From positions 1 to 35,907 of the forward strand of contig CANRME010000003.1 of the NCBI GenBank assembly GCA_947631655.1: 35,907 bases of DNA, read 5' to 3'. The DNA comes from an uncultured Bacilli bacterium. GTDB taxonomy: Bacteria > Bacillota_I > Bacilli_A > RF39 > UBA660. Positions 1,489-18,579 of this stretch are shown in pieces (within the stretch, counting starts at the first letter, position 1; every line of letters begins with the position of its first letter). The notes below the pieces were generated by a model that saw nothing but the letters and a program-made list of their open reading frames with translations, did not search any database and was not told where the DNA came from. Made by a program: the position numbers and the translations under genes.

Positions 1489-1521
1489 TATTGAATTAAA
1501 ACTACACATTGACTATCGCCA

Positions 1522-2694
1522 GGTGGCGAAGGCGCCGAAGTCGTCTATCCTCTAAGAAGTACAGATACACTAGCAAAGGCAATATTAGAAGAAATTGGCT
1601 CTGAAGGACAAATTACACGAAAATATTACCAAAGACGTTTACCAGAAGACCCATCAAAAGATTATTACTATATTATGAGAGAAACCCCAGATACCACGTC
1701 CCTTTTAATAGAATACGGATTTATTGATAATCCAAATGATGTGGAAAAGTTGCAAAACAATTTAACTGACTATGCCGAAGCGGTAGTAAGAGCAGTTTCG
1801 CGATACATTGGTGTTCCTTACACAAGTCCTGAAGGAGTGACAGACAATACATATATTGTGCAAAAAGGAGATAGTTTATACTCGATTGCACGAAAATTCA
1901 ATACAACAGTTGATGCCTTACGTGATTTAAACAATTTAACAAGTGATACTCTATCTATCGGACAATTACTTATTATTTCAGGTGATATGGGACCAGAACC
2001 ATCTGAACCAGAAGAACCAAGTAACGACTATACCTTATACACAGTAAAAAATGGAGACAGTTTATACAAAATTGCCAACCAATTTGGAACTACTGTAGGC
2101 GAATTAATTAGAATCAATAACCTAGGAACTACAGTTTTATCAATCGGACAGCAATTAAGAATTCCAAACAGTCAACAAACGGGAATCCAATATACTGTGC
2201 AAAAGGGTGATAGTCTATGGAAAATCGCCAATCAATATGGTGTCAGTGTCGACGACATTATAGAAATCAATAATCTTTCAGGAACAACTTTATCCATTGG
2301 ACAACAATTAATCATTCCAACGAAAAATCAAATTAAACCACCAAACAATCCAATCGAGCCACCAGTCGATGAAGAAAATACCACACAATTATATGTAGTA
2401 AAAAGTGGAGATAGTTTATACTCCATTGCAAGAGCCTTTGGAACCACAGTGGCTGAATTGAGAGAAATAAACAACTTAACAACAGATACCCTACAGATTG
2501 GGCAACTTTTAAGAATCCCAGGTAACTCGAGTAATACAGAAACCATCTATTACGTAAAAAGCGGAGATAGTCTTTGGAAAATAGCTAATCAATTTGGTAC
2601 AACGGTAGATGCCATCATAAATCGGAATAATTTAGCAACTAATTTACTTCAAATCGGACAACAACTAATTATTCCAAACGAAAATCGGATTTAA
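1522..2694 (+). pseudogene. 3' half of an N-acetylmuramoyl-L-alanine amidase (Amidase_3) with 5 LysM domains; split by the upstream element
   Basis: The frame extends upstream of the called ATG (1675, no SD) as GGEGAEVVYPLRSTDTLAKAILEEIG...DYYYIMRET...IEYGFIDN, up to a stop at 1510. Five YxVxxGDSL LysM repeats follow. The Zn-binding N-terminal half is missing. Confidence 0.8.
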
Positions 2695-2709
2695 GTATCC
2701 GATTTTTTT
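2681..2709. terminator. Bidirectional intrinsic terminator between the convergent LysM gene and cwlJ
   Basis: AAAATCGGAT-ttaagt-ATCCGATTTT followed by a T-run. Confidence 0.8.
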
Positions 2710-3133
2710 AGTGAATCTGTTTACAAACTCCTTCATAAGGTTCATAAAAACAATGACTTTTATATCTGCCAGATAATCTTTGCTCATACCATAAAGGAAC
2801 ACAACTTTCATTTCCTCTCGGAGCATAGAACCATAATGCGTTAGTTGCTGGATAATAGTACTCTCCTTGTAAAACTCTTCTCGCGAGCTCTTTTTCTAAG
2901 GTAGTCGCTGTGGAGAAAAACAAATTACTATTCACACCAGCAAAGCCTCCAGGAGATTGGTAGATAACTTGTGTAATAGTTTGAATATCACGGAAAGTAA
3001 GACAATCCGCAATCGCTCGATTTACCGCCACATTACCAACCATCAACATTCCTAAACTTCCTTCACCAATTGCCTCGGCACGCATTAATCTAGCAAGTAA
3101 GTCCAACTCTTTAGAAGTATAAGAAACTAACAT
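2708..3133 (-). CDS. cwlJ: Spore cortex-lytic enzyme CwlJ (Hydrolase_2/SleB family)
   Basis: LLARLMRAEAxGEGxxGMLxVGNV..NR..DC..F...YQ...WY..R.KSHCFY closely follows B. subtilis CwlJ and has a similar length. The start is placed at ATG 3133 behind SD AGGTG. Confidence 0.88.
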   Translation of the reverse strand: MLVSYTSKELDLLARLMRAEAIGEGSLGMLMVGNVAVNRAIADCLTFRDIQTITQVIYQSPGGFAGVNSNLFFSTATTLEKELARRVLQGEYYYPATNALWFYAPRGNESCVPLWYEQRLSGRYKSHCFYEPYEGVCKQIH

Positions 3134-3148
3134 GAATATCACCTATAA

Positions 3149-3176
3149 TAAATTATGAAAAAAAATAAAATGTGTT
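3149..3176 (-). promoter_or_regulatory. Candidate mother-cell (SigE/SigK-type) promoter of cwlJ
   Basis: Minus-strand -10 CATAATTT matches CATAnnnT. The -35 (AACA/CACA) is a weak match. Confidence 0.45.
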
Positions 3177-3177
3177 A

Positions 3178-3206
3178 TTGTGCAATACAAACGAATATGC
3201 TATAAT
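3178..3206 (+). promoter_or_regulatory. SigA promoter for tRNA-Trp
   Basis: TTGTGC-17-TATAAT with an extended TG. Confidence 0.6.
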
Positions 3207-3288
3207 ACAAGACATGGGAAGTGATATTAAAATCTAATTTAAGAATTAGTGAAATGGTAGGATTTCATTGCAAGTCAATATGTAACCT

Positions 3289-3362
3289 AGGGGATTAGTT
3301 AAATGGTATAATAATGGTCTCCAAAACCACTGTTGGGAGTTCGATTCTCTCATCCCCTGCCA
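3289..3362 (+). tRNA. trnW: tRNA-Trp (CCA)
   Basis: Acceptor stem AGGGGAT/ATCCCCT, D-arm with TGGTA, anticodon loop CTCCAAA, T-loop GTTCGATT and an encoded 3' GCCA; 74 nt. Confidence 0.95.
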
Positions 3363-3382
3363 TGTGTTCATTACACGAACTC
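3337..3382. other. attL at the tRNA-Trp 3' end
   Basis: GAGTTCG-N13-CTGCCA-N13-CGAACTC, a symmetric dyad around the tRNA end. Confidence 0.75.
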
Positions 3383-3424
3383 GATTGCCATATTTAGATA
3401 TGGATTCGCAGTAAGTGTTCATAT

Positions 3425-3451
3425 AAAAAGGACTAGAAAATAGTCTTTTTT
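3425..3451 (+). terminator. Intrinsic terminator
   Basis: AAAAAGGACTA-gaaaa-TAGTCTTTTTT. Confidence 0.75.
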
Positions 3452-3826
3452 GTTTTAGTTTTTTATAGGAGATGATTAGTTCTAAATAACGATAAATAAT
3501 AAATAAAACTTTATATTTTTAGTCTTTGATTTGCTCGTCAATTTATAAGTATATATTTATAGTTATTATTATTTGGTTATTAGTCTTTTATTTATTAATA
3601 AAAGCTAATATATGGGGATATTTTACAAATTTTACAATATTATTGTTATATATTTTCTCAAAGCACTTAATAATCGGTGCCATTTTATAATAATTTTATT
3701 TAGTAAATCAAAGAATATTTGGCAATAACATAAAAGCACTAAACAAAAGGGACGTTTATATGAATTGATTATGATTTATTAGTAAAAAATAAATTATACA
3801 GAAAATAAAAAGATACATACGCACCT

Positions 3827-4060
3827 TTAATCAACATTATCAAATAATTGTCTTATATCTATTTCTAAAGCATCGGCAATTCTAGTTAGAGATACAATAG
3901 TAAAGCCTCTTTGCATTTTTTTACTCTCTATTTTAGAGATAAAATTCATTGTTAATCCAGCCCTATCGGCTAATTGTTGTTGAGTGAAATTCCTATCTTT
4001 TCTATATTTCTTTATATTATATCTAATAACATCAAAATAATAATTATCACTATGTTTCAT
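3827..4060 (-). CDS. XRE-family HTH regulator (C-protein-like size)
   Basis: IKKYRKDRNFTQQQLADRAGLTMNFISKIES...LTRIADALEI; SD AGGTGG. Confidence 0.9.
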   Translation of the reverse strand: MKHSDNYYFDVIRYNIKKYRKDRNFTQQQLADRAGLTMNFISKIESKKMQRGFTIVSLTRIADALEIDIRQLFDNVD

Positions 4061-4072
4061 ATTAGTACCACC

Positions 4073-4156
4073 TGTCCATAGTATTATTATCTTAAAAGTT
4101 TTTATACGGATATATGGACACGTTGTCCGTATTGTGATATAATCTTGATATGGACA
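4073..4156. promoter_or_regulatory. Divergent promoter region with five TAYGGAYA half-sites (putative XRE operators)
   Basis: Half-sites lie at 4073(-), 4105(+), 4113(+), 4124(-) and 4149(+). A TGGACA-17-TATAAT promoter spans 4115-4143. Confidence 0.65.
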
Positions 4157-4183
4157 AAGAGGTAATAGTGAGGTGAAAGAGGT

Positions 4184-4501
4184 ATGATGAATATGATATT
4201 ATCTATATTAGTAGTGGTTATTATAGCCATTGTTGCTATTGTATTTGCTGTTAAAAAGACGATACTTTATGTTGATAAAGAATACCGTAGTGCTGCTATA
4301 ATATCGTTCATATTCCCTATTGTAGGGTTGATAATCTATGCTGTTAATATAGGTTCCAACAAGAAATTAGCAAGAAGTTGTATAGCACCAGTTATAGCAG
4401 GCATGATAATTAGTGCAATAATAATCATAATGGTATTACTGATTCTTGGTGGCGTATATACCGGTGGCTCAGTACATACCAAAAATATTCCAATGAAATA
4501 A
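4184..4501 (+). CDS. Small membrane protein (about 3 TM helices)
   Basis: Three hydrophobic stretches, including SFIFPIVGLIIY; SD GAGGT. Confidence 0.75.
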   Translation: MMNMILSILVVVIIAIVAIVFAVKKTILYVDKEYRSAAIISFIFPIVGLIIYAVNIGSNKKLARSCIAPVIAGMIISAIIIIMVLLILGGVYTGGSVHTKNIPMK

Positions 4502-4525
4502 AAAAAGGCAAGAAATGTCTTTTTT
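4501..4525. terminator. Bidirectional terminator
   Basis: AAAAAAAGGCA-agaaa-TGTCTTTTTTT between convergent genes. Confidence 0.6.
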
Positions 4526-4571
4526 AATTTCTACAAGAAATTTACTTTGCGAATTAAGTTGATAAAGAGAA

Positions 4572-5534
4572 CTATTTTATAGAACTCTTTTTATTTTTGT
4601 TGTTGCGACTTTTTTGCTTTCTTTGATTTTGTCTCGATAAAGTGCATTCATATTCTAAACAATATTTTTGCCTAAATCCATTTCTTTTAAAAATATTATT
4701 ACAAGCTGGATTTTGACAGATTCCTATTGTTTCATCGTTGTTATCTCTTGATAGTTGCATTTTTAGCTCATATATACCTAATAATAGAGCATTATCAAAT
4801 ATCATTTTAGTTTCCCAACATTCATTATCATAATCAAATGTAGTATCAAATGTACAATAACCTTTGGTGCAATTATCAAGAAATTCTAAATTTTCACTTA
4901 TTTTTGTTGGAATATCGTGCTGTTTTGTAGTATCAATTATATATTTATATATTTTAGAGTATTTATTTGTATTATTTGCATATTGTTCTCTTAATAGAAA
5001 AGACTCATAAATTATATAGACAACTGTGAGAAAATATAAAATAATACATTCATTGTCAGATGTGGTATCGTTATCTTCAACAACTGAAACGAATCCATAC
5101 TTTTCAAAGAAACTAATTATTTCTTCTATAAAAATTGATAAATATTTATAATTGTTTCTATATAACAATAATAATATTACATTAAAATATACACTATAAT
5201 TGTCAGATTTAGTGCAATTAGCTGTTATAAAATCATCATCTATAATTTCATCATTTAGTTTTTTCCCCAAATTAAAAATATCTACAAAAACTTCATATGA
5301 ATTAATATTATTTTGTATTTCTTGTTTAGGAGCCATATTTTCATCTTTTTTATATTGATAATTATACTCTCCAATACTTAATATATCACCTTTTTTATGA
5401 TTAGATGTTGGATTAACTAGTGATAAGTCTTTTAAATCATAAGCGCCAATCATTAATAAATCTCGCCAACCTTGATTCATCTTTTTTATAGCGTCTTTAT
5501 CTATATTATTTTTTACTCTTAAATATGCTTTCAT
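4572..5534 (-). CDS. Protein with a C-terminal CGNR-like zinc finger
   Basis: CQNPAC...F......QKYC...C......RKQKSR followed by a basic tail. Confidence 0.65.
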   Translation of the reverse strand: MKAYLRVKNNIDKDAIKKMNQGWRDLLMIGAYDLKDLSLVNPTSNHKKGDILSIGEYNYQYKKDENMAPKQEIQNNINSYEVFVDIFNLGKKLNDEIIDDDFITANCTKSDNYSVYFNVILLLLYRNNYKYLSIFIEEIISFFEKYGFVSVVEDNDTTSDNECIILYFLTVVYIIYESFLLREQYANNTNKYSKIYKYIIDTTKQHDIPTKISENLEFLDNCTKGYCTFDTTFDYDNECWETKMIFDNALLLGIYELKMQLSRDNNDETIGICQNPACNNIFKRNGFRQKYCLEYECTLSRQNQRKQKSRNNKNKKSSIK

Positions 5535-5680
5535 ATATTTACCTTTTTAATGTCACAAGCATTTCACAAGTTATATGTAACATTCCTTTTCTAAATATTA
5601 TATGATGTCATTGTAATTATTTCAAGCGCGCATCTTATAATTACGTAAAATGAATTTAGTAATAATTGACTTGTACAGTA

Positions 5681-5811
5681 GATAAGAAAGGGAAAAACGT
5701 AAAAATCCTTAAAAAAATAAGGGATTTTAGCAATTATTATCGGCAATTATATGTTACCGTTATTAATACTACTTCATTTGCAATTATTACCGATAAGAAA
5801 GGAAAAGTAAA
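5681..5811. repeat. Iteron-like repeats upstream of the Rep-like gene
   Basis: GCAATTAT occurs at 5730, 5743 and 5780, and GATAAGAAAGG at 5681 and 5792. A hairpin lies at 5702-5728. Confidence 0.5.
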
Positions 5812-6315
5812 ATGGCAAAGTATTTAATAGATGATTACGGCGATTTAATAGGTGAATTTAATGATGATGATTCAATTCGTGTCTATAATCCATTGAATAC
5901 TAAAAGAAGACTTATAGAGAATAAATTATTTTATAAATTCTATAAAGATTCAATATTAATATTTGTGAATGGGCTTATTAGTAAACAAGTTACAATAACT
6001 TTGTTTAAATTAATTCGCTTATTAGAATTTGGCACAAATGAATTTGTTAATATTAATGGTTTGCCTGCAAGCTTAAATCAACTTGCTACTTTCTTCCATA
6101 TGAAAACTAAAACTTTCTTTAATCATATAAAAAAGCTTGAAGAACTAGAAATACTAAAGAAAGTAAAAAATGGGAGAAATAGGAATATTTTGATTAATCC
6201 TTATTTTATTGGATATGGCACTAATTGTACGGATGAATCTTTAAAAATTTTTAGCAAGACAATCTGGGCTAAACAATCAAAATATTCTAAAAATAAATTA
6301 AAGATTAAAAGCTAA
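5812..6315 (+). CDS. Winged-helix protein, RepL-like plasmid replication family
   Basis: SLNQLATFFHMKTKTFFNHIKKLEELEILKK...ILINPYFIGYG; SD AAAGGA. Confidence 0.55.
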   Translation: MAKYLIDDYGDLIGEFNDDDSIRVYNPLNTKRRLIENKLFYKFYKDSILIFVNGLISKQVTITLFKLIRLLEFGTNEFVNINGLPASLNQLATFFHMKTKTFFNHIKKLEELEILKKVKNGRNRNILINPYFIGYGTNCTDESLKIFSKTIWAKQSKYSKNKLKIKS

Positions 6316-6350
6316 TTTTTATGATTATTTTAGGGAAAGGAGGAAGTAAA

Positions 6351-6659
6351 ATGAGCAGGGAATACCCTTTTATAATGTTGATGAAAATCATTAGTAGTTT
6401 TAACTATAAAAGTGGTTATATCAAAAATTGGGATGATAACGAAGATATGGTAACAATTAACGAAATATGCCATATTGTAGGTATCAACACCAGCGATATT
6501 AATCATATTTTATCAATCTGGAGTTATTTTGACTTAGCAAGTGAATATAAGCAAAATAACAAAAGATACTTAAAAATATCTGATAAAGTTATTTCCAATA
6601 TTCAAAAAGGAAATATAATTAGATACGAATTAAAAAATACAAAAAGTAGACATTATTAA
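6351..6659 (+). CDS. Hypothetical protein, possibly a diverged winged helix
   Basis: The start is moved to ATG 6351 behind SD AGGAGG. TINEICHIVGINTSDINHIL looks HTH-like. Confidence 0.55.
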   Translation: MSREYPFIMLMKIISSFNYKSGYIKNWDDNEDMVTINEICHIVGINTSDINHILSIWSYFDLASEYKQNNKRYLKISDKVISNIQKGNIIRYELKNTKSRHY

Positions 6660-6735
6660 TTAACAGCATTTGCCATTTAAAATAGACAAAATAATAAAAA
6701 TGTGCTATTATAAATGTGTGAGGTGATAGGTTAAT

Positions 6736-7200
6736 ATGATTACTATAAGTGACAGATTAAAAGACTTAAGAATGAAAAATAAATTAAGTCAGAATGATTT
6801 GGCTTTGTCGCTAGGGATTAAAAGGCATACTATTAGCGCTTATGAAACTGGTAGTATAAAGCCCCCTATTGATAAGTTAATATTAATATCGAATTATTAT
6901 AATGTATCATTAGACTATCTATGTGGGATAACTAATAATCCTATAATTAATAGTTCTAAAATTGATGATTCTTTAGGATTTGATGTCGAAAGTATTGCAA
7001 AAATACAACAATTAAAACTAGCTAATAATATGCAGTTAATAATTAGTTTACTTAAATATGGAAGTATTGATTTGTTTAAATTGGCTAATAAATATTTAAG
7101 TACTAAATATGATAACGATACAAAGAAAAAAACAGATGAGTATGTTGTATTGGAAAAAATTAAGGATACTTTTGATGAATATAAAATAAAAAAAGATTGA
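6736..7200 (+). CDS. XRE-family repressor
   Basis: RLKDLRMKNKLSQNDLA...ISAYETG..KP....L...SNYYNVSLDYLCG; SD GAGGTG. Confidence 0.92.
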   Translation: MITISDRLKDLRMKNKLSQNDLALSLGIKRHTISAYETGSIKPPIDKLILISNYYNVSLDYLCGITNNPIINSSKIDDSLGFDVESIAKIQQLKLANNMQLIISLLKYGSIDLFKLANKYLSTKYDNDTKKKTDEYVVLEKIKDTFDEYKIKKD

Positions 7201-7266
7201 TAGCTACGGCAATAGTTATCAATCAAGAGTACACATAAAACGGTTACCCCACCAATTTATATGTGT
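7188..7266 (-). ncRNA. Candidate ~75-nt antisense RNA upstream of the recombinase operon
   Basis: A minus-strand TTGTCT-17-TATAAT promoter (7301-7273) and a minus-strand terminator (stem 7195-7224, T7 at 7188-7194). Confidence 0.45.
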
Positions 7267-7328
7267 ACTCCTATTATATAATAATTTAATTATTAAGACA
7301 ATTATTTGAAAAAAGGAGTGATAAAAAT

Positions 7329-7514
7329 ATGTTAAATGATATGCAAGTAAATGCGATTTCTAGTGTATTTAGTGCTGGAGATATTAAAGACTATGTAGAA
7401 AGAAATATATATGATTATGTATTATTTGAACAGAAAGATAATAATCCAAATTGTAATATATCAATGAGAATAGGTTTTTTTGGAACACTTTCTTTAATTG
7501 GGGGTGTTAGATAA
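7329..7514 (+). CDS. Small protein translationally coupled to the LSR (candidate directionality factor)
   Basis: Strong SD AAGGAGTG; TAATG stop/start overlap with the LSR. Confidence 0.65.
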   Translation: MLNDMQVNAISSVFSAGDIKDYVERNIYDYVLFEQKDNNPNCNISMRIGFFGTLSLIGGVR

Positions 7515-9058
7515 TGAATGCAGTAATTTATGCAAGATATAGTTCTCATAATCAAACAGAATGCTCTATTGAAGGACAATTAGAGGAATGTAGAAAATAT
7601 GCAGAACAAAATAATATAAATATTATTGGAGAATATATAGATAGGGCAAAATCTGGAACTAAAGATAATAGAGATAACTTTCTTAAAATGATTGAAGATA
7701 GTAAAAGAAAAACATTTGAGGGTGTTTTGGTGTATCAATTAGATAGATTCGCTAGAAATAAATATGATAGTGTAATATACAAAAAACAACTTAAGGACAG
7801 AGGTATAAGGGTATTATCAGCAAGAGAGAATATATCTCAAGATGCAAGTGGTATTCTTATGGAAAGTGTGCTTGAGGGAATGGCGGAATACTTTTCTGTG
7901 GAACTGGGGCAAAAAGTCAGAAGAGGTATGAAGTTAAATGCTGATTGCTGTTACTATAATGGTGGAACAATACCTTTGGGCTATAAATTGGAAGTAGTTA
8001 ATGATGATAGGTTTAATAATGGTATTAAAAAAGCGGTTAAAAAGAGGTATGTAATAGATGAAAATAAAGCACCAATAGTTAAGAAGATATTTGAAATGTA
8101 TGCAAACGACAATAAAATGAGTGAAATTATTAACTATTTAAATGGTTTAGATTTAAGAACAGCTTATAATAAATCATTTAATAAAAGTAGTATTAGAAGA
8201 ATATTAGAAAATAAAAAATATATAGGTATATACACATATCACGGGCAAGAAACAAAAGACTCTATACCTAGAATAATTGATGATGAATTGTTTTACAAAG
8301 TACAACAAGAATTAAGAAAAAATAGTCTTGCTCCAGCTAGAAGAAGAGCTAAGACAGAATATTTATTATCTGGGAAATTATATTGTGGATTGTGTAGAGA
8401 AAAAATGACTGGAAGTTCTGGGACTTCCGAAAATGGAAAGTTATATACTTATTATGCTTGTAAATTAGCTAACAAACATTTATGTGATATGGATTCTGTA
8501 AAGAAAGAGGATATAGAAGATATTGTTTTAAAATCCTGTCAAGATATACTTACAAAAGACAATATTAATTTAATAGCCAAAAAGATTGTTGAGTATGCCA
8601 ATAACGAAAAAAATACTATTGAATATAAACAGTTAAGTAAAGCATTAAAAGATAATGAAAGAAGAAAGATTAACATTGTTAAAGCAATTACAGAATGCGA
8701 AGACAATACTACAAGACAAATTTTATTTGATGAGTTATCTAAAATCCAAAATGCTCTTGATGAAATTAATCAGTCTTTATTAATAGAAAAAGCTAAGCAT
8801 TTAAATCTCGGAATAACAGAAGTAAAGTATTTCTTAAATAATCTAAGAAAAGGAAATATAAATAAGTTTGAGTACCAAAAGATATTGATAAATACATTAG
8901 TAAATAAAGTGTACTTACATAAAGATAAGGCAATTATATTATTCAATATCAATAATCATGTAGAAGAGGTAAAAATATCTCTTCTTAATGATATTGAAAG
9001 TTCGCTTTTTAATGCAGTAGCTCTGCCACTAAGTAATGAAATGGCTTCGAAAAGTTAA
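7514..9058 (+). CDS. Large serine recombinase (resolvase, recombinase, Zn-ribbon and coiled-coil domains)
   Basis: AVIYARYSS (catalytic Ser), LDRFAR, PLGY, YLLSGKLYCGLC...YYAC......C. Confidence 0.95.
   Translation: MNAVIYARYSSHNQTECSIEGQLEECRKYAEQNNINIIGEYIDRAKSGTKDNRDNFLKMIEDSKRKTFEGVLVYQLDRFARNKYDSVIYKKQLKDRGIRVLSARENISQDASGILMESVLEGMAEYFSVELGQKVRRGMKLNADCCYYNGGTIPLGYKLEVVNDDRFNNGIKKAVKKRYVIDENKAPIVKKIFEMYANDNKMSEIINYLNGLDLRTAYNKSFNKSSIRRILENKKYIGIYTYHGQETKDSIPRIIDDELFYKVQQELRKNSLAPARRRAKTEYLLSGKLYCGLCREKMTGSSGTSENGKLYTYYACKLANKHLCDMDSVKKEDIEDIVLKSCQDILTKDNINLIAKKIVEYANNEKNTIEYKQLSKALKDNERRKINIVKAITECEDNTTRQILFDELSKIQNALDEINQSLLIEKAKHLNLGITEVKYFLNNLRKGNINKFEYQKILINTLVNKVYLHKDKAIILFNINNHVEEVKISLLNDIESSLFNAVALPLSNEMASKS
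8999..9053. other. attR of tier 1 / attL of tier 2, inside the LSR 3' end
   Basis: AGTTCG-N18-CTGCCA, then an imperfect CGAAAA 19 nt downstream. It shares AGTTCG and CTGCCA with the tRNA end. Confidence 0.7.
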
Positions 9059-9191
9059 AAAAGAATTTTAGGAGATAATATTCTTTAGCTTGAAAGGAGC
9101 TGTTTTTTAATGATAAATTAAACGATTTTATAAAGAACAATTTTAAGAATAAAAAAGATAATTTATCAAACGAAAACAAGGATGAGTGATT

Positions 9192-10526
9192 TCATCCTTT
9201 ATTTTTTTCGTTAAGTTTACTAAATAAGAAATTTTTATCTAACATAAAGCAAACTTTTGTAACATCATTTTGAAAAAAGTTTGTATAAGCCTCATCGCCT
9301 CTTTTACCCTTAGGAGCAACCTCTAGTATTTGACCATCAAATCTTTTTGGCTGAGGTAGCAATGATATATCATGTTTTTCAATGGCCTTTTTAACTTGAT
9401 TATATGTTCTTCCAAATAATTCAATATCTTCGTCGTTAAATGTTATTTGTCTTATACCCTCTAAAATTCTTTCTCCATTTTTTGAATTTTTACTTCCTTT
9501 ATAACAAATGACAATTAATGTAACTTCTTCAAAATAATTTTTCCAATAAGAGTCTTCCCAAGAATCTTTAAATTCAGTTAATACTAAATTTCTAAAGGAC
9601 ATTCTTTCAAGTGGATAGCCAAAATCGTTTACAGGTAAATTTTTAATAATATAATTAACTTTTTGAAATAATGGATTCTTAGTAGGTAGCTCTTTATCTT
9701 TTCCAATTAACTCATCAGAAATCATTTTACTTAATTGTTTTGGGACTGGTTCTGCTAATTTTTTATGTGTTAGATATTCAAAAATATCATTTTGTTTTTT
9801 TCCAATAAAATTTTGTATTTGAGCGAATACATATTCTTCAATTGTTTTATATTCAATGTTATCTACATCTAAAATTAAATGTGCATTTCTTAAAATACCT
9901 GTCATATAAGAATTTTTTAGTGAGTATGCTCGTGGCATTGCTAATTCAGTAGAAAATGGTTGAGTAGTTCTATCTTTTCCTGTAGATCCTTTGGGACATG
10001 CTCCCAAATAAGAAGTGTCTCCTTCAGATAGCAAATGAGCCTTTCCTTCTATTACTTTTTGTTTGATTAGTTCAAAATCATTTTTAATTATTAAAGAATC
10101 ACCAGTCATATCATAAAGTTGAAAATCAGTAATTACAAAATCCTTATAATCTTTTTCTCTATCATATTCATACCAAATAATTAATATTTTTTTACTTTTA
10201 AATAATAAATGACTAAAATCAAATTCTTCATGAACAATACTATTATAATCAATCTTTCCTAAAACTAATCTTTCTTTAGCAGAAATTGTTCCATTTTTAT
10301 TTTTTATATATCCACTAACTTTTAACTCTACGCCAAGATTAGCAAAATCAGCTTCAGCTTTGTTATTATTAGGATATTTATAAAAACCAGTTTCAATAAT
10401 TTTTCCCAAATTACCCTTATCTTTAGAGTTTGTCGTTAAAGTATTATTTATATCAAAATCTTTAAATGTTTTACCTCTAATTTGTTTGGTATATTCAAGA
10501 AGTTCATCAATTGTTTTGAAATTCAT
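9192..10526 (-). CDS. Sau3AI/MutH-family type II restriction endonuclease
   Basis: KGNLGKIIE...F.Y..NN..EADF...GVELKV...AKERLVL...HLLSEGDTSYLGACPKG...RAYSLKNSYM, followed by a second MutH-like domain. Confidence 0.9.
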   Translation of the reverse strand: MNFKTIDELLEYTKQIRGKTFKDFDINNTLTTNSKDKGNLGKIIETGFYKYPNNNKAEADFANLGVELKVSGYIKNKNGTISAKERLVLGKIDYNSIVHEEFDFSHLLFKSKKILIIWYEYDREKDYKDFVITDFQLYDMTGDSLIIKNDFELIKQKVIEGKAHLLSEGDTSYLGACPKGSTGKDRTTQPFSTELAMPRAYSLKNSYMTGILRNAHLILDVDNIEYKTIEEYVFAQIQNFIGKKQNDIFEYLTHKKLAEPVPKQLSKMISDELIGKDKELPTKNPLFQKVNYIIKNLPVNDFGYPLERMSFRNLVLTEFKDSWEDSYWKNYFEEVTLIVICYKGSKNSKNGERILEGIRQITFNDEDIELFGRTYNQVKKAIEKHDISLLPQPKRFDGQILEVAPKGKRGDEAYTNFFQNDVTKVCFMLDKNFLFSKLNEKNKG

Positions 10527-10536
10527 TTTTTACCTC

Positions 10537-12225
10537 CTAGATTTTGTTAAGCATAATTTTATATTTTTTTGCTACTCTAGCAGAAGTATTAATATTTTCT
10601 TCTATTTTTTCAACTAAATAACTAATTTCTTCTAATGTGGCCAGAGAAAAAATCTCCAATCTTTGCCTTGCTCTTGATGCGGCAACATAAAAATTATTAA
10701 GATATTCTTCTTTCTCAATTTTGAATGGATTGAAATCTACTATAATAATAATATTAGATTCCAAACCTTTAAATTTTTTTGATGTTGTAAATAAAATTTT
10801 GTCTTTTTCAAATTGACTTGATAATGCAATTTTTCTTTTAATATTTTCTATGTTAATTATTGAATTATCTTCGCTTTCCATTGTTAAAATAGTAATATCT
10901 TCATTATCATAACCATCTTTCGTATAACTATTAATTTTTTCAATGATACTTTTTAATAGTTCGTCTTTTCTATTAGAATAATTTAATATTGGCATTATTC
11001 CTGAAATACAAAACTCATTTGATGTACTTTTACTACTAACAATACTGTTCATAGTATTAAGAATTTTTTGAGTATTTCTACAATTCTTTGTTAATTTTAA
11101 TTTGCAATCAAATAATTTTAATATGTTTGGCAAATTTTTATAATATAAAAGTTGGTTTTTATCATAAAATATGAATAATCTAATATTATTTGTTTGGCAA
11201 AATTTTACCAAATGCTCTAGTATTTTATCATAAATATCTTGAGCTTCATCAATAATAATATATTTATATTCCAATTGTTTTAAATCAATTTCTTTAATAG
11301 CAAGTAACAATTGAGAATCAGCTAACAAATTTTTCACAGAATATTTTCCTACAAAAGAGTGTATATTGTAATAATCAATATTTTCATAATTACATTTTTC
11401 AATTAAATGTTTATTAAGAAACTTGTTGAAACATAAAAATAATACTTTTCCGTTTTTTGCAAACCTTTTTGCTTGTTCTACAGCAACGAACGTTTTTCCA
11501 GTTCCAGCTCCGCCTTCAATAGCAACAGAATTTTGATCTTCAATAAAATCTAATACTTTTTTTTGCTCATTGGTAAGTTGTAAAAATACATAGTCAGCTT
11601 CATTTTTTACATTAGACGAAGAGGGAATTAAATCAAAATTTGGCATTAAAATATTTTCTATTACTTTTATTCCATTTTTTTGTAATCTGGTAAAACGTAG
11701 TCCATTATAATAATTAAATACTTTTATTAAGCTTAATTCTGGCGTTTTCAAATCTTCTTCTGATAATATTTGATTAATGCTATAGTTTAACGGTAATGTA
11801 AATTTTTTTATTTCATCTTTTGAAATAGATGGGAACCAGACAGCTTTGTCAATAAAACACCTATCACCATTTAGTAGTTCACCATCAATCTCTTCTATAA
11901 GCTTATATTTGCTTCTATCAGCTTGTTTAAAAGGATCTTTCATTTTATATTCTTCATTTGTGTCTAATCTTTTTTGATACCAATCACCATTTTCACATCT
12001 AATTTCTCCGGATTTAACTTCAATTATTAGAATTCCATAGATTGGATTAAAAATTGCAAAATCAGCTTCTCCCCAAGTAATTCTTCCGTTGTTATTCCTT
12101 TTTTGCCATGTTAATGAATAATAAATATTCCAAGAATTAGACAAGTTTTTTAAAGCCTGAAATATTTTATATTCACCTAAACTATTATGGAAATCATCAG
12201 ATATTTCTGGATAAAAATGTGCCAT
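10537..12225 (-). CDS. NERD nuclease fused to an SF1 (UvrD-like) helicase
   Basis: NERD motifs EADF...IEVKSG...PFKQA; helicase motifs GGAGTGKT, IIDEAQD, NCRNT, KGLE and YVAASRAR. Confidence 0.88.
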   Translation of the reverse strand: MAHFYPEISDDFHNSLGEYKIFQALKNLSNSWNIYYSLTWQKRNNNGRITWGEADFAIFNPIYGILIIEVKSGEIRCENGDWYQKRLDTNEEYKMKDPFKQADRSKYKLIEEIDGELLNGDRCFIDKAVWFPSISKDEIKKFTLPLNYSINQILSEEDLKTPELSLIKVFNYYNGLRFTRLQKNGIKVIENILMPNFDLIPSSSNVKNEADYVFLQLTNEQKKVLDFIEDQNSVAIEGGAGTGKTFVAVEQAKRFAKNGKVLFLCFNKFLNKHLIEKCNYENIDYYNIHSFVGKYSVKNLLADSQLLLAIKEIDLKQLEYKYIIIDEAQDIYDKILEHLVKFCQTNNIRLFIFYDKNQLLYYKNLPNILKLFDCKLKLTKNCRNTQKILNTMNSIVSSKSTSNEFCISGIMPILNYSNRKDELLKSIIEKINSYTKDGYDNEDITILTMESEDNSIINIENIKRKIALSSQFEKDKILFTTSKKFKGLESNIIIIVDFNPFKIEKEEYLNNFYVAASRARQRLEIFSLATLEEISYLVEKIEENINTSARVAKKYKIMLNKI

Positions 12226-12227
12226 AA

Positions 12228-15200
12228 TTACACCTCATTTGGAATCAGTTCTAGATATTTTTCAACTTCATCTATTGCTATTATTTTCCAATCTTTTTCA
12301 GAGCATTTATTTCTTACTTCAAATCCACAGTACTCTGGAGAAATAATTAAATTTTCATTTACATATATAAATAGTGCCTTTATAGTAATACCTGAAATAT
12401 TTATATCAGTATATGCAAAATCAGCTATTTTTTTGTTTTCTCTATCTAGTAAATTACAATAATATTTATACTTTTCTTCTGTAACTAAATTTTCGCTAAT
12501 TCTCTTCCAACTATCATAATCTTCTAAACTATATGTTTCACAAGCATTAACATCAATATATTTTTCTAATTTTTCAGGATGTTTTATTATTTTATTTTCA
12601 ACTGCAGCAATGTTATCTATTTCATTTTCTATATCTTCTCCTAAAAAATACCTTTCAACAAAATTCCATCTTTCGTTATTTTGGCTATTGTTATAATGTC
12701 TAAAAAAATAATCTAATATCTTGACTGATCTATAATGTTTCTCTTTAGCCATTTCAACATAATTATTTTTATAGATAACCCTGTCTTCCACAATATTTTT
12801 AATTTTATCTGGTGCGTTTAAACGAATAAATATTTCTGGACTATCACCGCCCACAATTTCGTATGAAACTAAGTCTAAAATAGATAAAAGTTTTAATGCG
12901 TTAGAATCTGTTACATTGTCAGCATAAAATTGTTCATATTCTGAATTATTTATATACCTTATATTTTTTATTAAAGATGCCTTGCTTAAAATTTGTGTTG
13001 CCAATGTTCTTAATTTTCCATTACTAATTTGATATTTTTCAAATTCATTATCTTCTCTTCTTACAATACATTCATAGTTCAAATCTATGACATCAAAATA
13101 CGAATTTGCAATTATTTCAGCTTTAGAACTCTTATATCTTGAAGATATTTTATTTTTAAACTCTTCTTTGGTGAAAAAATTTCTATCAAACGAAGTTAAT
13201 GTATCAGTTAAATAATTAATCTCATCCATAGCCTTTTGATAAACTTCTGAAAGCAATCCTGATTTCGCTTTCATAGATAGCTTTACTCTATAGAAAATAT
13301 CATTTTTAATATCTCCCATAACATCAACACTATTTTTGTTAAAAAATTTATATTTAAATGATGCAAATGACATTTCTGAACCATATATATTTTCCCAAAT
13401 ACTCTTTAAATCAATTTCATAAATTGGACCCGGATCTGTTACAAGGCATCCACCAACAGCCTCACGGTTTCTTCCTTCTGCAATTTTAGTAAAATATTTT
13501 CCATATTTACTATTTTCAATTTTTAAAACATTTTCTTCTGATACTGAGGCATAAGCTTTTGTAAACATTGTACCTGGTCTAGAAATTAATACATATATTT
13601 TATAAGTTTCATAAAAATCTTTTTCAAGCATTAGTAAAACTATTTTTAATTTGTTTTCCAAATCATCTTGATTGGTTTTTCCAAATACACCATCAAACAT
13701 TTTGGGATTAATCATAAAATTTCGATGCTTTTTATTTAGAAATGTATCATAAATTATAGATAAACATTTCTTTACATGATATTGTTTGATTTGCGACATA
13801 CCAAATAAAGTATTAACATATTTCATGTCACCATTAAAATAGTCAACAATAGCTTTTCCATTAATGCTTTTATCTCTAGCAGCTCTTCCTATTTCTTGAA
13901 CATAATCACTTAGTCCACCAGTTACAGCATAGTGAAAGACATTATGAATATCTGAAATATCTATTCCCATTCCAAAAGCTTTTGTTGCAATCATTACATT
14001 TGCTTTTCCTTCGGTAAAGTCATCCATTGCTTGTACTTTTTCTTCAGCTTCTTCACCACTTCCGGTATATATTCTAATATCATTTTTAAAACATTTAAAA
14101 CTACTAAATTCTTTATCACCATTATAAATTTGGTGTGCAATCGAACTATATGGACAGTAAACTATTGTTTTATCATTTTTATCAATCCACCCATTTATTC
14201 TCTCACCTAGTTTTTGTATTTTCATATCTTTATATTGATCATAAGATTTGTCTGTGTAATTATTTATCTCAAAAGTGATATTTTCTCTTTTTGCTGAACC
14301 TATCTTTTTGATTGGATCATTCATAAACAAACTAATAATTGTTTCTGAAACGGTATCATCTTTTCCACCATTTACCGCAGTAGCTGTACAAGCAAAAATT
14401 GGAAAATCATGATGCCTTTTGCCTTGACCGAATTTATTTTGCATTGTTCTAAGTCTATTTATGTATGTACCTAAATACCAATAATCAGGTCTAAAGCCAA
14501 CGCCCCAAGTTGTAACTATATGAGCTTCATCTATGATTATAAGTCCGATTTCTCTTTCTCCTATTAATGAATCGATTGAATGTGATAGAAGTGTTTCAGG
14601 GCTAACATATAAAATGTCTATTTTTCCTTCTTTGACATTATTAATTATTTCTTCTCTTTGAACAATTGTTGCAATATCAGAATTTAAATATGCATGTTTT
14701 TTATATCCAGATTTGGTTAATATATCATATTGATTTTGCATTAATCCTTTTAAAGGTTCAATAATAATTATTAGTTTGTTATATTTTTCACTTAAATAAA
14801 TTGAAGGCAATTGAAAGATTAATGATTTCCCTGCACCTGTAGACGCAGTCATAAATATATCTCTATATCTTTTTCCCGCATATGCTTTTTCAGATTCACT
14901 AACTATGTATTCCATTATTTCAGCTTGAGAAATATCTTCCATTTCATCTGATAAATCTGGATCTTTATAAAATGATAATTTTCTAAAATTAAAATCTGTT
15001 TTACCAGTAAGTTTTGTACCTATTTTTTTTAGTTCTTCTCTAATAGTACTTGTTATGGGATATTCGCCAGAATATTTGTAAAGGATATTAATATTTAAGG
15101 ACTTCAATAATGCTTTCATTGATTCGAATATCATATTTGATATTTCGGTATTACAAACTTTTTTATAACCAATGGTTTTATAATTATTAGTAATGATATT

Positions 15201-15773
15201 TTGATAGTGTTCTAAATATTTTTCGAGATTATCGTCTATATCAATTAAATATTCACAATTATCTGTTAAATTAATATCGATGTTATTGTCATAAAAATGA
15301 ATAATTCTATCTATATTTGCATTATTTGGAAACTCATAATTGTAATAAGTCACATAATATTGCCCGTTTACCAAATAGATATTTGAATAAATGTTGTCTA
15401 AACTTTGAACTTTTAAATTGACATTCATATTTTCTTCTTCTTTATATTTTAAATACTCTAAGAACGTATTTTCTTCTATTTCACAATATATAGGATATAT
15501 TCCAGGAAAAATATTATTACATACTATTTTTATTCTTATTCTTCCAGTCTTGACAAAAATATAAAGTTGTTCATGAATTAATTCAAATTCTTCATAAGTA
15601 ATCCAAAATTTTTCACCACGTTTATTATAAATATATCCACCTAGTTCAAATGCATAATCATTAGTTAAATTTTTATAGTCGATTTTAAAATCTAAATCTT
15701 TTTCACTTAGTGGCAAATAATCTAATTTTGATAAAAAATCCTTATTAAACCCTTTATAAACATATAAATCCAT
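12228..15773 (-). CDS. Large RecQ-like SF2 (DEAH) helicase with long N- and C-terminal extensions
   Basis: STGAGKS, YVSPE, IDEAH..TTWG..FRPDY, TAT, ATKAFGMGID and YVQEIGRAARD. The start is placed at ATG 15773 behind SD AAGGAAG. Confidence 0.88.
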   Translation of the reverse strand: MDLYVYKGFNKDFLSKLDYLPLSEKDLDFKIDYKNLTNDYAFELGGYIYNKRGEKFWITYEEFELIHEQLYIFVKTGRIRIKIVCNNIFPGIYPIYCEIEENTFLEYLKYKEEENMNVNLKVQSLDNIYSNIYLVNGQYYVTYYNYEFPNNANIDRIIHFYDNNIDINLTDNCEYLIDIDDNLEKYLEHYQNIITNNYKTIGYKKVCNTEISNMIFESMKALLKSLNINILYKYSGEYPITSTIREELKKIGTKLTGKTDFNFRKLSFYKDPDLSDEMEDISQAEIMEYIVSESEKAYAGKRYRDIFMTASTGAGKSLIFQLPSIYLSEKYNKLIIIIEPLKGLMQNQYDILTKSGYKKHAYLNSDIATIVQREEIINNVKEGKIDILYVSPETLLSHSIDSLIGEREIGLIIIDEAHIVTTWGVGFRPDYWYLGTYINRLRTMQNKFGQGKRHHDFPIFACTATAVNGGKDDTVSETIISLFMNDPIKKIGSAKRENITFEINNYTDKSYDQYKDMKIQKLGERINGWIDKNDKTIVYCPYSSIAHQIYNGDKEFSSFKCFKNDIRIYTGSGEEAEEKVQAMDDFTEGKANVMIATKAFGMGIDISDIHNVFHYAVTGGLSDYVQEIGRAARDKSINGKAIVDYFNGDMKYVNTLFGMSQIKQYHVKKCLSIIYDTFLNKKHRNFMINPKMFDGVFGKTNQDDLENKLKIVLLMLEKDFYETYKIYVLISRPGTMFTKAYASVSEENVLKIENSKYGKYFTKIAEGRNREAVGGCLVTDPGPIYEIDLKSIWENIYGSEMSFASFKYKFFNKNSVDVMGDIKNDIFYRVKLSMKAKSGLLSEVYQKAMDEINYLTDTLTSFDRNFFTKEEFKNKISSRYKSSKAEIIANSYFDVIDLNYECIVRREDNEFEKYQISNGKLRTLATQILSKASLIKNIRYINNSEYEQFYADNVTDSNALKLLSILDLVSYEIVGGDSPEIFIRLNAPDKIKNIVEDRVIYKNNYVEMAKEKHYRSVKILDYFFRHYNNSQNNERWNFVERYFLGEDIENEIDNIAAVENKIIKHPEKLEKYIDVNACETYSLEDYDSWKRISENLVTEEKYKYYCNLLDRENKKIADFAYTDINISGITIKALFIYVNENLIISPEYCGFEVRNKCSEKDWKIIAIDEVEKYLELIPNEV

Positions 15774-15881
15774 AAATACACTTCCTTTTTGATCTTGTTT
15801 TTTATTTAAAAATTTTATACAATAATAGTAATGAAGGTTAATCTTTAACATCATTTATTATATAATAAATATCGATAAAAG

Positions 15882-15910
15882 TTGATCTTTTTCTTCAAAT
15901 AAATTATAAT
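15882..15910 (+). promoter_or_regulatory. SigA promoter of the methyltransferase, with GATC in the -35 box
   Basis: TTGATC-17-TATAAT. Confidence 0.7.
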
Positions 15911-15951
15911 ATATTTAGGGAATATAAACAAATAGTCAGGAGGCTTAAGTT

Positions 15952-17190
15952 ATGAAAAAAACTATGGTTGAATTATTTGCTGGTGTTGGTGGTTTCCGTT
16001 GTGGATTAAATCATGTGGAATTAAAAGATGGTAAGACTATAGAAAATGGCAATTGGAAATGTCTTTGGGCAAATCAGTGGGAACCAGCTACTAAGTCGCA
16101 AGAAGCATATGATTGCTATGCTAAGAGATTTGGTGCTGAAGATGTATCAAATGTAGATATATTTGAAGTTGATAAACATGATATACCAGACCATACACTA
16201 TTAGTTGGTGGATTCCCTTGTCAGGACTATTCTGTTGCTCAAACTCTTTCAAATAGTAAAGGAATAGAAGGTAAAAAAGGAGTTCTTTGGTGGGCTATAG
16301 AAGAAACACTAGCTATTAAAAAGCCACCATTTGTACTATTAGAAAATGTTGATAGATTACTATTGTCTCCTGCTAAACAAAGAGGAAGAGATTTTGGAAT
16401 GATTTTAAGAAGTTTCTATGAAAATGGTTATGATGTAGAATGGAGGGTAATCAATGCCGGAGAATATGGTCTCCCACAAAAACGTAGAAGAACTTATATT
16501 TTTGCTTATCATAAATCAACAAAGTATTATAAAAAAATGCAAAAAATTTCTGACTATGATGTGATTTTTTCTGATGGTATGTTTGTACAACAATTTCCTA
16601 TTAAACAAAGTTATGAAGAAATAACTGAATCTAATATTTCAGAATATAAAGATTTAGTAGAAGTAAGCAATTTATTTAAGTGTAATTTTTATAATGCAGG
16701 AATTATGAAAAATGGAGGTATTTATACAGTTAAAGTAAAAGCAGATTATAATTTGGTTTATCCACTAAGAAATATTCGTGAAGAAGAGCCAGTAGATGAA
16801 AAATATTTCTTAAGTAAAGAACAGATAGAGAAATTTGCATTCTTAAAGGGTAGTAAAAAAATCCCTAGAGTTAAGCCAAATGGTGAACCATACTTTTACT
16901 CAGAAGGAGCTATGCCATTCCCTGATAATTTAGATGCACCAGCTAGGACAATGCTTACTAGCGAAAGTGGAATTAGTAGAACAACCCATGTTATTGAGGA
17001 CTTTAAAACAAAAAAAACAAGACTTCTTACTCCAAGAGAATGTGAAAGAATAAATGGGTTCCCAGATGATTGGACTAATACAGGAATGTCTGATAAAAGA
17101 AGATATTTTATGATGGGAAATGCTTTAGTTGTTGGGGTAATTAAAAAAATTGGTGTTGAATTAGAGAAAATAATAGATGATGAAAATTAA
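15952..17190 (+). CDS. DNA (cytosine-5)-methyltransferase, M.Sau3AI-like (probable GATC target)
   Basis: ELFAGVGG, GGFPCQDYS, ENV, QKRRR and MGNAL, plus subfamily-specific WANQWEP and GIEGKKGVLWW; SD AGGAGG. Confidence 0.93.
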   Translation: MKKTMVELFAGVGGFRCGLNHVELKDGKTIENGNWKCLWANQWEPATKSQEAYDCYAKRFGAEDVSNVDIFEVDKHDIPDHTLLVGGFPCQDYSVAQTLSNSKGIEGKKGVLWWAIEETLAIKKPPFVLLENVDRLLLSPAKQRGRDFGMILRSFYENGYDVEWRVINAGEYGLPQKRRRTYIFAYHKSTKYYKKMQKISDYDVIFSDGMFVQQFPIKQSYEEITESNISEYKDLVEVSNLFKCNFYNAGIMKNGGIYTVKVKADYNLVYPLRNIREEEPVDEKYFLSKEQIEKFAFLKGSKKIPRVKPNGEPYFYSEGAMPFPDNLDAPARTMLTSESGISRTTHVIEDFKTKKTRLLTPRECERINGFPDDWTNTGMSDKRRYFMMGNALVVGVIKKIGVELEKIIDDEN

Positions 17191-17215
17191 TTATTATGTT
17201 ATAATTAAAATAACT

Positions 17216-17247: not shown

Positions 17248-17282
17248 AGTAATACTACTTTTTAAAAGTAATGTTGTCATGA

Positions 17283-18566: not shown

Positions 18567-18579
18567 TTGAAAACAGGAG

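Follow-up and report, generated by a model that had tools for sequence, protein, structure and literature searches.

The DNA window analysed here, the first 35,907 nucleotides (nt) of contig CANRME010000003.1 from an uncultured Bacilli bacterium (assembly GCA_947631655.1), carries at positions 3363–9028 what we identify as a small integrative element, inserted at the 3′ end of a tRNA-Trp gene, whose large serine recombinase (LSR) gene spans its own attachment (att) site, attP. Comparison with other genomes confirmed, at the level of sequence, that this feature is real: the element encodes two C-termini for the LSR according to its state, a 26-residue tail when the ends of the element are joined and LSNEMASKS when it is integrated. 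A preliminary description of this DNA, made from the letters alone, had proposed such state-dependent isoforms, and the proposal is upheld by the joined-frame tail, by its coding pattern and by open reading frames (ORFs) in which LSR and tail are naturally contiguous. We put the probability that the gene has two states and that its tail is translated and functions as part of the enzyme at about 0.7.

The right-hand end of the element lies within the recombinase gene. In the integrated state the protein ends ...NAVALP-LSNEMASKS*, with the codons ctg cca at 9023–9028, and the preliminary description was correct in both coordinates and sequence when it had this frame cross attR as Leu-Pro. We searched 301 genomes of the same family (G labels) for the LSR at E ≤ 1e-30 and found a relative in 23. 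The closer relatives (53–66% identity) keep the protein up to ..ALP, encoded by GCTCTGCCA, and have nothing in common beyond it, the host-side tails after ..ALP being LSNEMASKS, YVNILQLLELEHRLNL, VVIVRLMSVNKTWYKYVSSF, KQLIALCDFDIKV, NC or an immediate stop. The break is abrupt: between G305 and G087 the 300 nt before CCA are 100% identical and the 300 nt after it 31%, and in all nine LSR ends compared homology ceases exactly after CTGCCA, with unrelated flanks. Most of the best 120 homologues listed from a large protein collection (P labels) likewise align to ..ALP, ..APP or similar and then carry 0 to ~50 unrelated residues. Because LSR homology stops after ..ALP and the flanks are unrelated, we place attR inside the LSR ORF, at 9028/9029. 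A contig of run X7, from a different study, has the tRNA-Trp 3′ end, eight other letters and then 26 nt that match the window from 9037; it looks like an empty site lacking 3363–9028, and with its short match side and the 90% match threshold it is supporting evidence only. The crossover position claimed earlier is therefore borne out both by the exact end of LSR homology after CTGCCA and by the joining of tRNA-Trp to 9037 onward in X7. The LSR gene thus sits at the edge of the element, its 3′ end overlapping the att site and its stop codon lying outside; in every complete example we found, it occupies an element end.

At the left-hand junction, joining 9028 to 3363 in silico gives ...ALP-CVHYTNSIAIFRYGFAVSVHIKRTRK*, 26 codons closed by an in-frame TAG at 3441–3443. 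This TAG lies in the 3′ arm of a terminator-like hairpin (Table 1), which would end the tRNA-Trp transcript when the element is integrated and the LSR mRNA when its ends are joined; a simple terminator scanner missed the hairpin, as its stem has fewer than three G-C pairs. Both the joined in-frame tail and the placing of its TAG within a terminator hairpin had been described correctly, the hairpin being found at 3423–3453. Equivalent hairpins follow the tails in G016, G087, G052, G154 and L127, and complete tails each stop at or just before a hairpin. On its own the window is weak evidence: its two ends have no repeat in common beyond the 6 nt of CTGCCA, and at this base composition chance alone would give an open run of 26 codons with a probability of ~0.07. 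The earlier inference of a complete gene on the circle, drawn from this stop-free run, was to that extent thinly founded, and it is the comparison with other genomes that lifts the observation above chance.

In two relatives tRNA and LSR lie on one contig, and the joined tails read YDTQANFYFFLGGFAVIYNLEKAL* (G052) and YENKANFYYFIGGFAVIYNLEETLKN* (G154); in G016 and G087 the tRNA-Trp is on a contig separate from the LSR and is followed by CEHNTNFYYFVGGFAVNIKLEKSSKND* and FGLKTNFYYFVGGFAINIKLDNSSKND*, respectively. Both element ends were found on one contig in the window, G052, G154, L070, L073 and L087, L070 being at tRNA-Trp. We then derived a tail pattern, CCTGCCA-N30-45-GGNTTYGYNRT, which matched 14 of the 301 family genomes (0/301 for the reversed-pattern control); 12 of these matches were tRNA-Trp 3′ ends and two were chance matches inside genes. 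Frame 0 after CCA is open for 17–30 codons at 11 of the 12 tRNA-Trp sites, the two shortest runs going off contigs, and the other two frames at these 11 sites close after 0–18 codons. Conservation of the joined-frame tail at homologous tRNA sites, a test set beforehand, was thus observed in 11 of the 12 tRNA-Trp sites that carry the tail. An LSR also occurs in 7 of the 12 tail-site genomes versus 16 of the 289 others, in a set of genomes that are related, not independent, and in which many contigs end at this point.

The tail family has the consensus xExxTNFYYFVGGFAVxIxL (window tail, TNSIAIFRYGFAVSVHIK), and the conserved tail is 20–34 amino acids (aa) long across elements. Among the eight tails of the common length class, the columns that vary between nt 22 and 51 after CCA, outside the att arm, number 3, 2 and 8 at codon positions 1, 2 and 3, and the pairwise differences over the same stretch 27, 19 and 85; the two length classes differ by exactly one codon. 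The extreme C-termini are not conserved (..KND, ..KAL, ..LKN, ..TRK, ..LKR, ..IKL). A search of Rfam at E ≤ 1 over 3200–3600 returned the tRNA and found no RNA family after it. By these patterns the tail-coding DNA carries the signature of a sequence translated in the joined frame, and the tail is under purifying selection as protein. Since the tRNA genes differ widely between genera while the tails are alike, the tail is a part of the element rather than of the host trailer. That the conserved post-tRNA stretch is a host trailer had been suggested by G006, which has a tail and no LSR, and was rejected because the same tail follows very different tRNA-Trp genes and transfer-messenger RNA (tmRNA). 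A tRNA-Trp gene 16 kb upstream of the LSR in G192 was considered as attL and not counted, as its trailer looks native; the LSR of that genome is followed by what appear to be the first 13 nt of the tail with a 2-nt deletion.

LSR and tail are also found joined in nature. Six of the 120 listed homologues (P0019, P0043, P0063, P0081, P0088 and P0115) contain both in one ORF, P0043 reading ..ALP-YENNTNFYYFVGGFAINIKLKR. In L127, a 5.9-kb metagenome contig with no tRNA, the LSR runs from ..GLP into NQYYTNFYYFKGGFAATFRL* and then a terminator, with element-type genes on both sides and the same AGTTC/GAACT spacing as in the window. L087, where a 172-kb metagenome contig ends, holds two or more LSR elements in tandem at a single tRNA-Trp: it starts with the tRNA-Trp end followed by a tail, its first LSR reads ..ALP-LENNTNFYYFIGGFAVNIKLVNSSKND* into the next element, and further on a partial LSR again runs into a tail. 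The contiguity of LSR and tail in L127, L087 and the listed homologues means that the full-length gene exists in nature. Formation of the L087 array by the LSR would seem to need attP × attL recombination or integration of a multimer. A search with the C-terminal 88 residues of P0043 gave five matches, with no new tail-bearing protein among them, and a scan of viral contigs with the LSR gave seven pattern matches and no relatives. In phage and plasmid collections the best matches to P0043 were 41–44% identical; one of them, MT837660.1, ends ..GAP, is followed by an unrelated tail and has no tRNA. As a separate observation, P0002–P0004, the closest listed proteins (91–92% identical to the window LSR), and P0011 (73%) have a 35-aa tail, LENDTNFYSSFFIFLVLSPFLFFIYEYYIKRGMIE, which begins like the conserved tail and then diverges; it may reflect a decayed neighbouring element.

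The same layout recurs at other RNA targets. LSRs of sister branches end ..APP or ..FPP, encoded by a 3′ end terminating in CCACCA, and in G285, G082 and L073 the 3′ end of a tmRNA or tRNA-Ala gene is followed by CENKTNFFYFVGGFAI.., DDAQANYFYYFRGGFAV.. or LFPYMNTIYFVGGFAVNIRL*. In G285 the same tail-coding sequence follows the tmRNA 3′ end at a contig start and the tRNA-Ala(tgc) 3′ end at a contig end (C15 and C19; L151, L152); both RNA genes end in CTCCACCA, and the element may use both sites, or else the contigs were broken at a repeat during assembly. In L139 (10001–11819) the LSR gene runs at its 3′ end antisense into a tmRNA gene, as in dsiB of Dehalococcoides. More distant LSRs (L139, L109, L126, L137, L120 and others) end like ..VEAGGVEP-PSENxSTGTSPGADG. 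For the loci other than L139 an antisense arrangement is suggested by the shared peptide alone, and ARAGORN found no tmRNA at the LSR end in the four of them that were scanned.

Comparison of these sites outlined the anatomy of att. The P arm has the layout (A/T)GTTC-N16-GCTCTGCCA in all nine LSR ends examined. In the window the AGTTC of the P arm begins 30 nt ahead of the CCA end; that of the tRNA arm (3338–3342, 25–21 nt before the CCA end) begins 25 nt ahead of it, 5 bp nearer CTGCCA. On the other side, GAACT lies 15–19 nt after CCA; tail-bearing tRNA-Trp sites except G006, G206, G117 and G082 (TGAACT, CAAACT or a 1-nt shift) have it at this offset, which is also kept in the contiguous attP of L127. 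The positions of AGTTC and GAACT are symmetric about the CT of CTGCCA, and this arm symmetry suggests that the crossover dinucleotide is CT at 3357–3358. A motif for the second DNA-binding domain (DBD2) shifted 5 bp inward in attB relative to attP is described as a hallmark of LSR sites (PMC11722253), and the left arms here fit this 5-bp rule. The last ~10 codons before the junction (...SS....ALP) appear to double as the P arm of attP, mimicking the tRNA-Trp 3′ end. The ~50-bp att site encodes about residues 496–511, and residues 492–508, which straddle the junction, form a low-confidence linker in the model of P0043, which fits a segment whose sequence is set by the DNA site.

To see where the tail might lie, we used an AlphaFold2 model of P0043, which is 56% identical to the window LSR. 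The model has a mean predicted local distance difference test score (pLDDT) of 81.8; a coiled-coil insertion within DBD2, with long helices at 348–428, stands between the zinc ribbon and the last beta-strands, and the tail forms a hairpin at 509–526 (strands 509–516 and 519–526). We also modelled the body (280–490) and the tail (491–527), which are parts of one polypeptide, as separate chains of a complex. The interface score ipSAE was 0.26, 0.62 and 0.63 in three runs (median 0.62), with 0.00 for the best of three controls, and the runs agreed in at least 45% of contacts; in calibration, 58 of 80 solved complexes attained the mark used for this score, as did 2 of 110 mismatched pairs, figures that apply approximately here, own alignments having been used. 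In the models, strand 519–525 of the tail is predicted to pair with 472–477 in the last zinc-ribbon sheet and to touch 341–365 and 432, in the helices that lead into and out of the coiled coil. We know of no solved structure that contains this tail. In the SPbeta integrase, the directionality factor is described as binding DBD2 and coiled-coil hinge segments (PMC11722253). We infer, with modest confidence, that the tail forms a beta-hairpin lying against the last sheet of the zinc ribbon, beside the base of the coiled coil, the region that sets LSR directionality, and the predicted contacts would be consistent with a tail that modulates the coiled-coil hinge or access to it.

How such a tail might act can be outlined conditionally. 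Joining of the ends, in an excised circle or beside a tandem neighbour, gives a gene for a full-length LSR with the conserved hydrophobic tail, and this tail-bearing LSR would be the integration-proficient enzyme of an incoming or excised element. Integration replaces the tail by host-encoded residues, here LSNEMASKS, and the tail-less LSR would have altered activity, stability or access for a directionality factor, being attenuated, open to an excision factor or less stable. The state of the element would then feed back on its own recombinase, as in the IntP/IntX forms of the Mx8 integrase. We offer this mechanism, an integration-proficient tail-bearing form and an altered integrated form, as the one we favour, though tentatively. 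A stricter version, which we regard as rather unlikely, makes the tail a directionality switch inherent in the enzyme and governed by the topology of the element: while the ends are joined, the hairpin would cover the surface formed by DBD2 and the coiled-coil hinge, the target of directionality factors in other LSRs, locking the enzyme into integration and making it insensitive to an excision factor, and integration would remove the hairpin, leaving the surface free and the resident enzyme switchable to excision. Such an LSR would sense through its own gene whether the element is integrated, and would need no separate sensor. A C-terminal degradation tag is disfavoured, because the extreme C-termini of the tails are not conserved.

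Several observations weigh against a two-state gene with a functional tail. Most integrated LSR genes are intact without it, and if integrated copies are still used the tail is consequently not essential for every function. The tail-bearing ORFs may derive from tandem arrays rather than from circles. The back-joint from 9028 to 3363 was not listed among the assembled contigs of runs X1, X5, X6 and X7 over 3000–9400 of the window, which cover the element at a depth of ~3–7 and in which a rare circle would be undetectable, so that this result speaks neither for nor against a circle; terminal repeats were found in 0 of the 14 small contigs checked, and no contig was called circular. Five of the 12 genomes with a tail-bearing tRNA-Trp site have no LSR match at E ≤ 1e-30, and in one genome, G006, the tail peptide is moreover 1 nt out of frame with CCA. 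The tail of the window ranks with the most divergent ones, reading FRYGFAV in place of the FVGGFAV of the majority. A shared B′ motif was not found in nine attR flanks, so the att model is supported for the left arms only. In the structure predictions the pLDDT of the tail is low (~40–54 in the monomer and 36–50 in the complex), and one of the three runs of the complex scored only 0.26.

The overlap of gene and att site could also be incidental, with the functional LSR ending at about ..ALP and the post-tRNA DNA being kept for the P′ arm, for tRNA 3′ processing and for the terminator, without a role as protein. The first 19 nt after CCA are indeed plausibly an att half-site, with the conserved GAACT, but conservation reaches at least 30 nt beyond what a half-site usually spans. 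The terminator at the end of the stretch serves the tRNA; the stop codon is always at this terminator, and Rfam recognizes no RNA family in the stretch. An open run of 26 codons might arise by chance (~0.07). Against an incidental overlap stand frame 0, open at 11 of the 12 sites while the other frames close early, the distribution of variable columns over codon positions in the joined frame (3, 2 and 8), and an indel of 3 nt between the tail classes. That integrated LSR genes stay intact without the tail would be expected of an incidental overlap, and for dsiB McMurdie et al. thought a function of the overlapping part unlikely (PMC3146451); here, however, the same peptide motif follows tmRNA and tRNA-Ala ends that have different att cores. 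We consider an incidental overlap improbable.

Two further explanations accept less of the proposed element or of its mechanism. The tail might act solely at the level of the protein, in folding, solubility or degradation, so that integration would tune the amount of enzyme and not its choice of site. State-dependent stability has a precedent in integration-dependent immunity, and loss of the tail, which is hydrophobic and in the prediction shields part of the zinc-ribbon sheet, could destabilise the LSR; the predicted contacts, however, include the helix at the base of the coiled coil, a directionality element, and the unconserved extreme C-termini argue against an ssrA-like C-terminal tag. 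A role of this kind alone seems doubtful to us, if far from negligible. It is also conceivable that the boundaries are wrong and that the mobile unit is the whole island at 3363–20241, from the tRNA to a remnant of a tRNA end, with 9028 not a junction. The sequence at 20232–20241 (caccctgcca) does resemble a tRNA 3′ end, a hairpin at 20280–20310 is 100% identical to the terminator after tRNA-Trp in G004, and 9192–20130 looks like accessory, defence-type genes. Against this, homology breaks exactly at 9028 in all nine LSR ends, X7 sets tRNA-Trp next to 9037 onward, and LSR genes stand at element ends in every complete example; the features of the larger island are compatible with a two-state LSR gene if the LSR element inserted beside an older island. 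Wrong boundaries are accordingly a very remote prospect.

The features of the element and its surroundings are collected in Table 1. The G+C content of the element is 23–30% versus 33–37% in the flank at 1501–3500. Between tRNA and LSR lie two Xre-type helix-turn-helix (HTH) genes, both wholly within the element, and five ORFs without a family match above cut-off; homologues of the 77-aa HTH regulator occur in the elements of G052, G154 and G182. From its position alone, the 61-aa ORF is a candidate accessory or directionality factor. Pfam and PHROGs gave no second resolvase-family ORF in the element. In the LSR itself the catalytic domain matches PF00239 (Resolvase; E 6.1e-29, residues 3–142), the first DNA-binding domain PF07508 (Recombinase; E 1.4e-22) and DBD2 PF13408 (Zn_ribbon_recom; E 1.8e-11), and R8, S10, S11 and four cysteines are invariant in a 70-sequence LSR alignment (A1). 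All Pfam domains remain in the one 514-aa ORF of the integrated form, only 26 codons being exchanged. The X1 contigs show another joint within the element, 5009 to 7169 (side 21).

Table 1: Features of the integrated element, its att sites and adjoining DNA (positions in the window).
Feature	Position	Strand	Basis and remarks
tRNA-Trp(cca) gene with encoded CCA	3289–3362	+	ARAGORN; Rfam tRNA model, 61 bits; B arm of att site, left intact by integration
attL copy of the CTGCCA identity block	3357–3362	+	Only repeat common with 9023–9028; crossover dinucleotide within
Integrated element, 5,666 bp	3363–9028	+	Ends from tRNA end and LSR homology break; X7 empty-site-like contig agrees
P′ arm of attP, left end of element	3363–3381	+	GAACT 15–19 nt after CCA
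Tail-coding segment, 26 codons + TAG	3363–3443	+	LSR C-terminus only when 9028 is joined to 3363
Terminator-like hairpin, 13 bp, then T-run	3423–3453	+	Free energy −12.2 kcal/mol, z −4.2; 0/200 shuffles fold as well
Xre/Cro-type HTH regulator, 77 aa	3827–4060	−	Pfam HTH_19, HTH_3; PHROGs transcriptional regulator families
Hydrophobic ORF, 105 aa, cargo	4184–4501	+	ORF list; no PHROGs family
ORF, 320 aa	4572–5534	−	ORF list; no Pfam or PHROGs family
Two ORFs, 167 aa and 112 aa	5812–6659	+	First: weak winged-helix (MarR-like) match below Pfam cut-off
Xre-type HTH regulator, 154 aa, upstream of LSR	6736–7200	+	Pfam HTH_3, E 2.8e-15; PHROGs phrog_8
ORF, 61 aa, abuts LSR start codon	7329–7514	+	ORF list; no family match (Pfam, PHROGs)
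LSR, integrated-state isoform, 514 aa	7514–9058	+	Pfam PF00239, PF07508, PF13408; PHROGs integrase phrog_95, E 1.9e-105
P arm of attP within LSR coding sequence	8999–9028	+	AGTTCG 30–25 nt before CCA end, then GCTCTGCCA; encodes ...SSLFNAVALP
Integrated-state tail LSNEMASKS + TAA	9029–9058	+	Read from DNA beyond the element
B′ side, former tRNA-Trp trailer	9029–9062	+	X7 contig

Downstream of the element, a defence-type block at 9192–20310 encodes a MutH-like endonuclease (444 aa), a protein with NERD and UvrD-like helicase parts (562 aa), a 1208-aa DEAD-box helicase, a C5 cytosine methyltransferase, a 427-aa ORF without a family and a Ser/Thr kinase; it may represent an earlier island at this tRNA that no longer has an integrase. 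G004, which carries the twin of the hairpin at 20280–20310, is the genome of another genus. The window itself begins with the last 116 codons of an LSR-like ORF, which has a weak DUF4368 match and resembles a complete 519-aa LSR on contig C36 of the same genome, followed by a 352-aa ORF without a family. The G+C content is 19–23% up to ~1500 and then jumps to 35–37%; since the jump falls there, this second element probably ends near 1500.

Two other tRNA-Trp loci are worth recording. In G006 (C32; L003/L058) a tRNA-Trp identical to that of the window is followed by ~100 nt that are 86% identical to window 3363–3465 and encode LEFYLNSIAIFRYGFAVRISINRT*, then by a terminator with compensatory changes and a nitroreductase-like gene; the site may be a remnant attL or belong to an element whose LSR was not assembled. 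In G087 (C23; L051/L054) a 1.1-kb insert separates a complete tRNA-Trp from a repeat of its last 54 nt, and the tail of the LSR element comes after this repeat. So long a direct repeat suggests use of the tRNA by another kind of integrase as well.

The value of serine integrases lies in their one-way action, and work continues on how this direction is set in natural elements. The elements described here look like a family whose LSR differs by a conserved tail of 20–34 residues according to whether the ends of the element are joined or apart. Should the tail alter activity, it would amount to a compact record of integration state written in protein and to a simple engineering handle, since the hairpin could be added or removed. 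Annotation and enzyme mining are affected too: the true C-terminus may be missing from LSR genes that come from integrated copies, and prediction of att sites could use the rule that homology between such LSR genes stops at the crossover.

Among known systems, integration-dependent immunity in mycobacteriophages has attP within the repressor gene, and integration by a tyrosine recombinase removes a C-terminal degradation tag from the repressor. As in the window element, attP lies in a gene and integration alters the C-terminus of its product; the gene here is the integrase and not the repressor, and the tails of the window family lack a conserved extreme C-terminus. The preliminary description had drawn this analogy, with the integrase itself in the place of the repressor, and overrated the novelty, as the genes of the Mx8 integrase, of archaeal SSV-type integrases and of DsiB already span an att site. 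In Mx8, attP lies within the gene of a tyrosine integrase, whose 3′ end is exchanged for a new one on integration (IntP/IntX), and the integrated form is described as still active with changed properties (PMC6070905). The window element resembles it in having the crossover inside the integrase ORF and a new gene 3′ end on integration. Mx8 Int is however a tyrosine recombinase, with other chemistry and other directionality control, so that the serine recombinase of the window is an analogue and not a member of that system, and the segment exchanged in Mx8 is unrelated in sequence and role to the tail of the window family. The archaeal SSV-type ‘suicidal’ tyrosine integrases, found only in archaea according to a review (PMC8371274), also have att inside the gene, as a compact module of integrase and site, and in both cases the state of the gene depends on integration; whereas integration there leaves the inactive halves Int(N) and Int(C), the LSR of the window swaps its last 26 codons and keeps its catalytic and DNA-binding domains intact.

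The closest precedent is DsiB, the LSR of the ssrA-specific genomic islands of Dehalococcoides described by McMurdie et al. in 2011 (PMC3146451). Both recombinases are encoded at the edge of an island inserted at the 3′ end of a small RNA gene, with att overlapping the 3′ end of the recombinase gene. The authors considered that dsiB may be fully functional only on a circle or beside an adjacent island that supplies a 3′ fragment, and their alignments diverge in the part that overlaps att (PMC3146451). In contrast to dsiB, which runs antisense into ssrA, the LSR gene of the window has the same direction as tRNA-Trp and is sense up to CCA; sister LSRs of its family target tmRNA in the sense direction as well, and the antisense arrangement is found only in L139. 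DsiB is accompanied by a small serine recombinase, DsiA (PMC3146451), and the window element by none that Pfam or PHROGs recognizes. The passages on dsiB in that paper report no conserved circle-encoded tail, whereas the tail of the window family is conserved, is 20–34 aa long and bears a coding signature. The present case also supplies, in conserved form, the ‘3′ gene fragment’ whose existence in the ssrA islands of Dehalococcoides had been no more than a conjecture (PMC3146451).

An engineered counterpart is the serine integrase with a directionality factor fused at its C-terminus, where the fusion sets the direction of the reaction (PMC5737554). The window family shares with these fusions, which act on DBD2 and the coiled-coil hinge (PMC5737554, PMC11722253), an extra C-terminal polypeptide, and its tail is predicted to touch that region. 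Unlike those fusions, which are engineered, use a separate factor protein and favour excision, the tail is natural, short and present in the state expected to integrate. We found no report of a conserved circle-only tail in an LSR in the open-access literature. In conclusion, what sets this family apart from the known systems is the sense orientation of the LSR gene up to CCA, a conserved, predicted hairpin tail with a coding signature at two or more RNA targets, and the predicted docking of that tail beside the directionality machinery.

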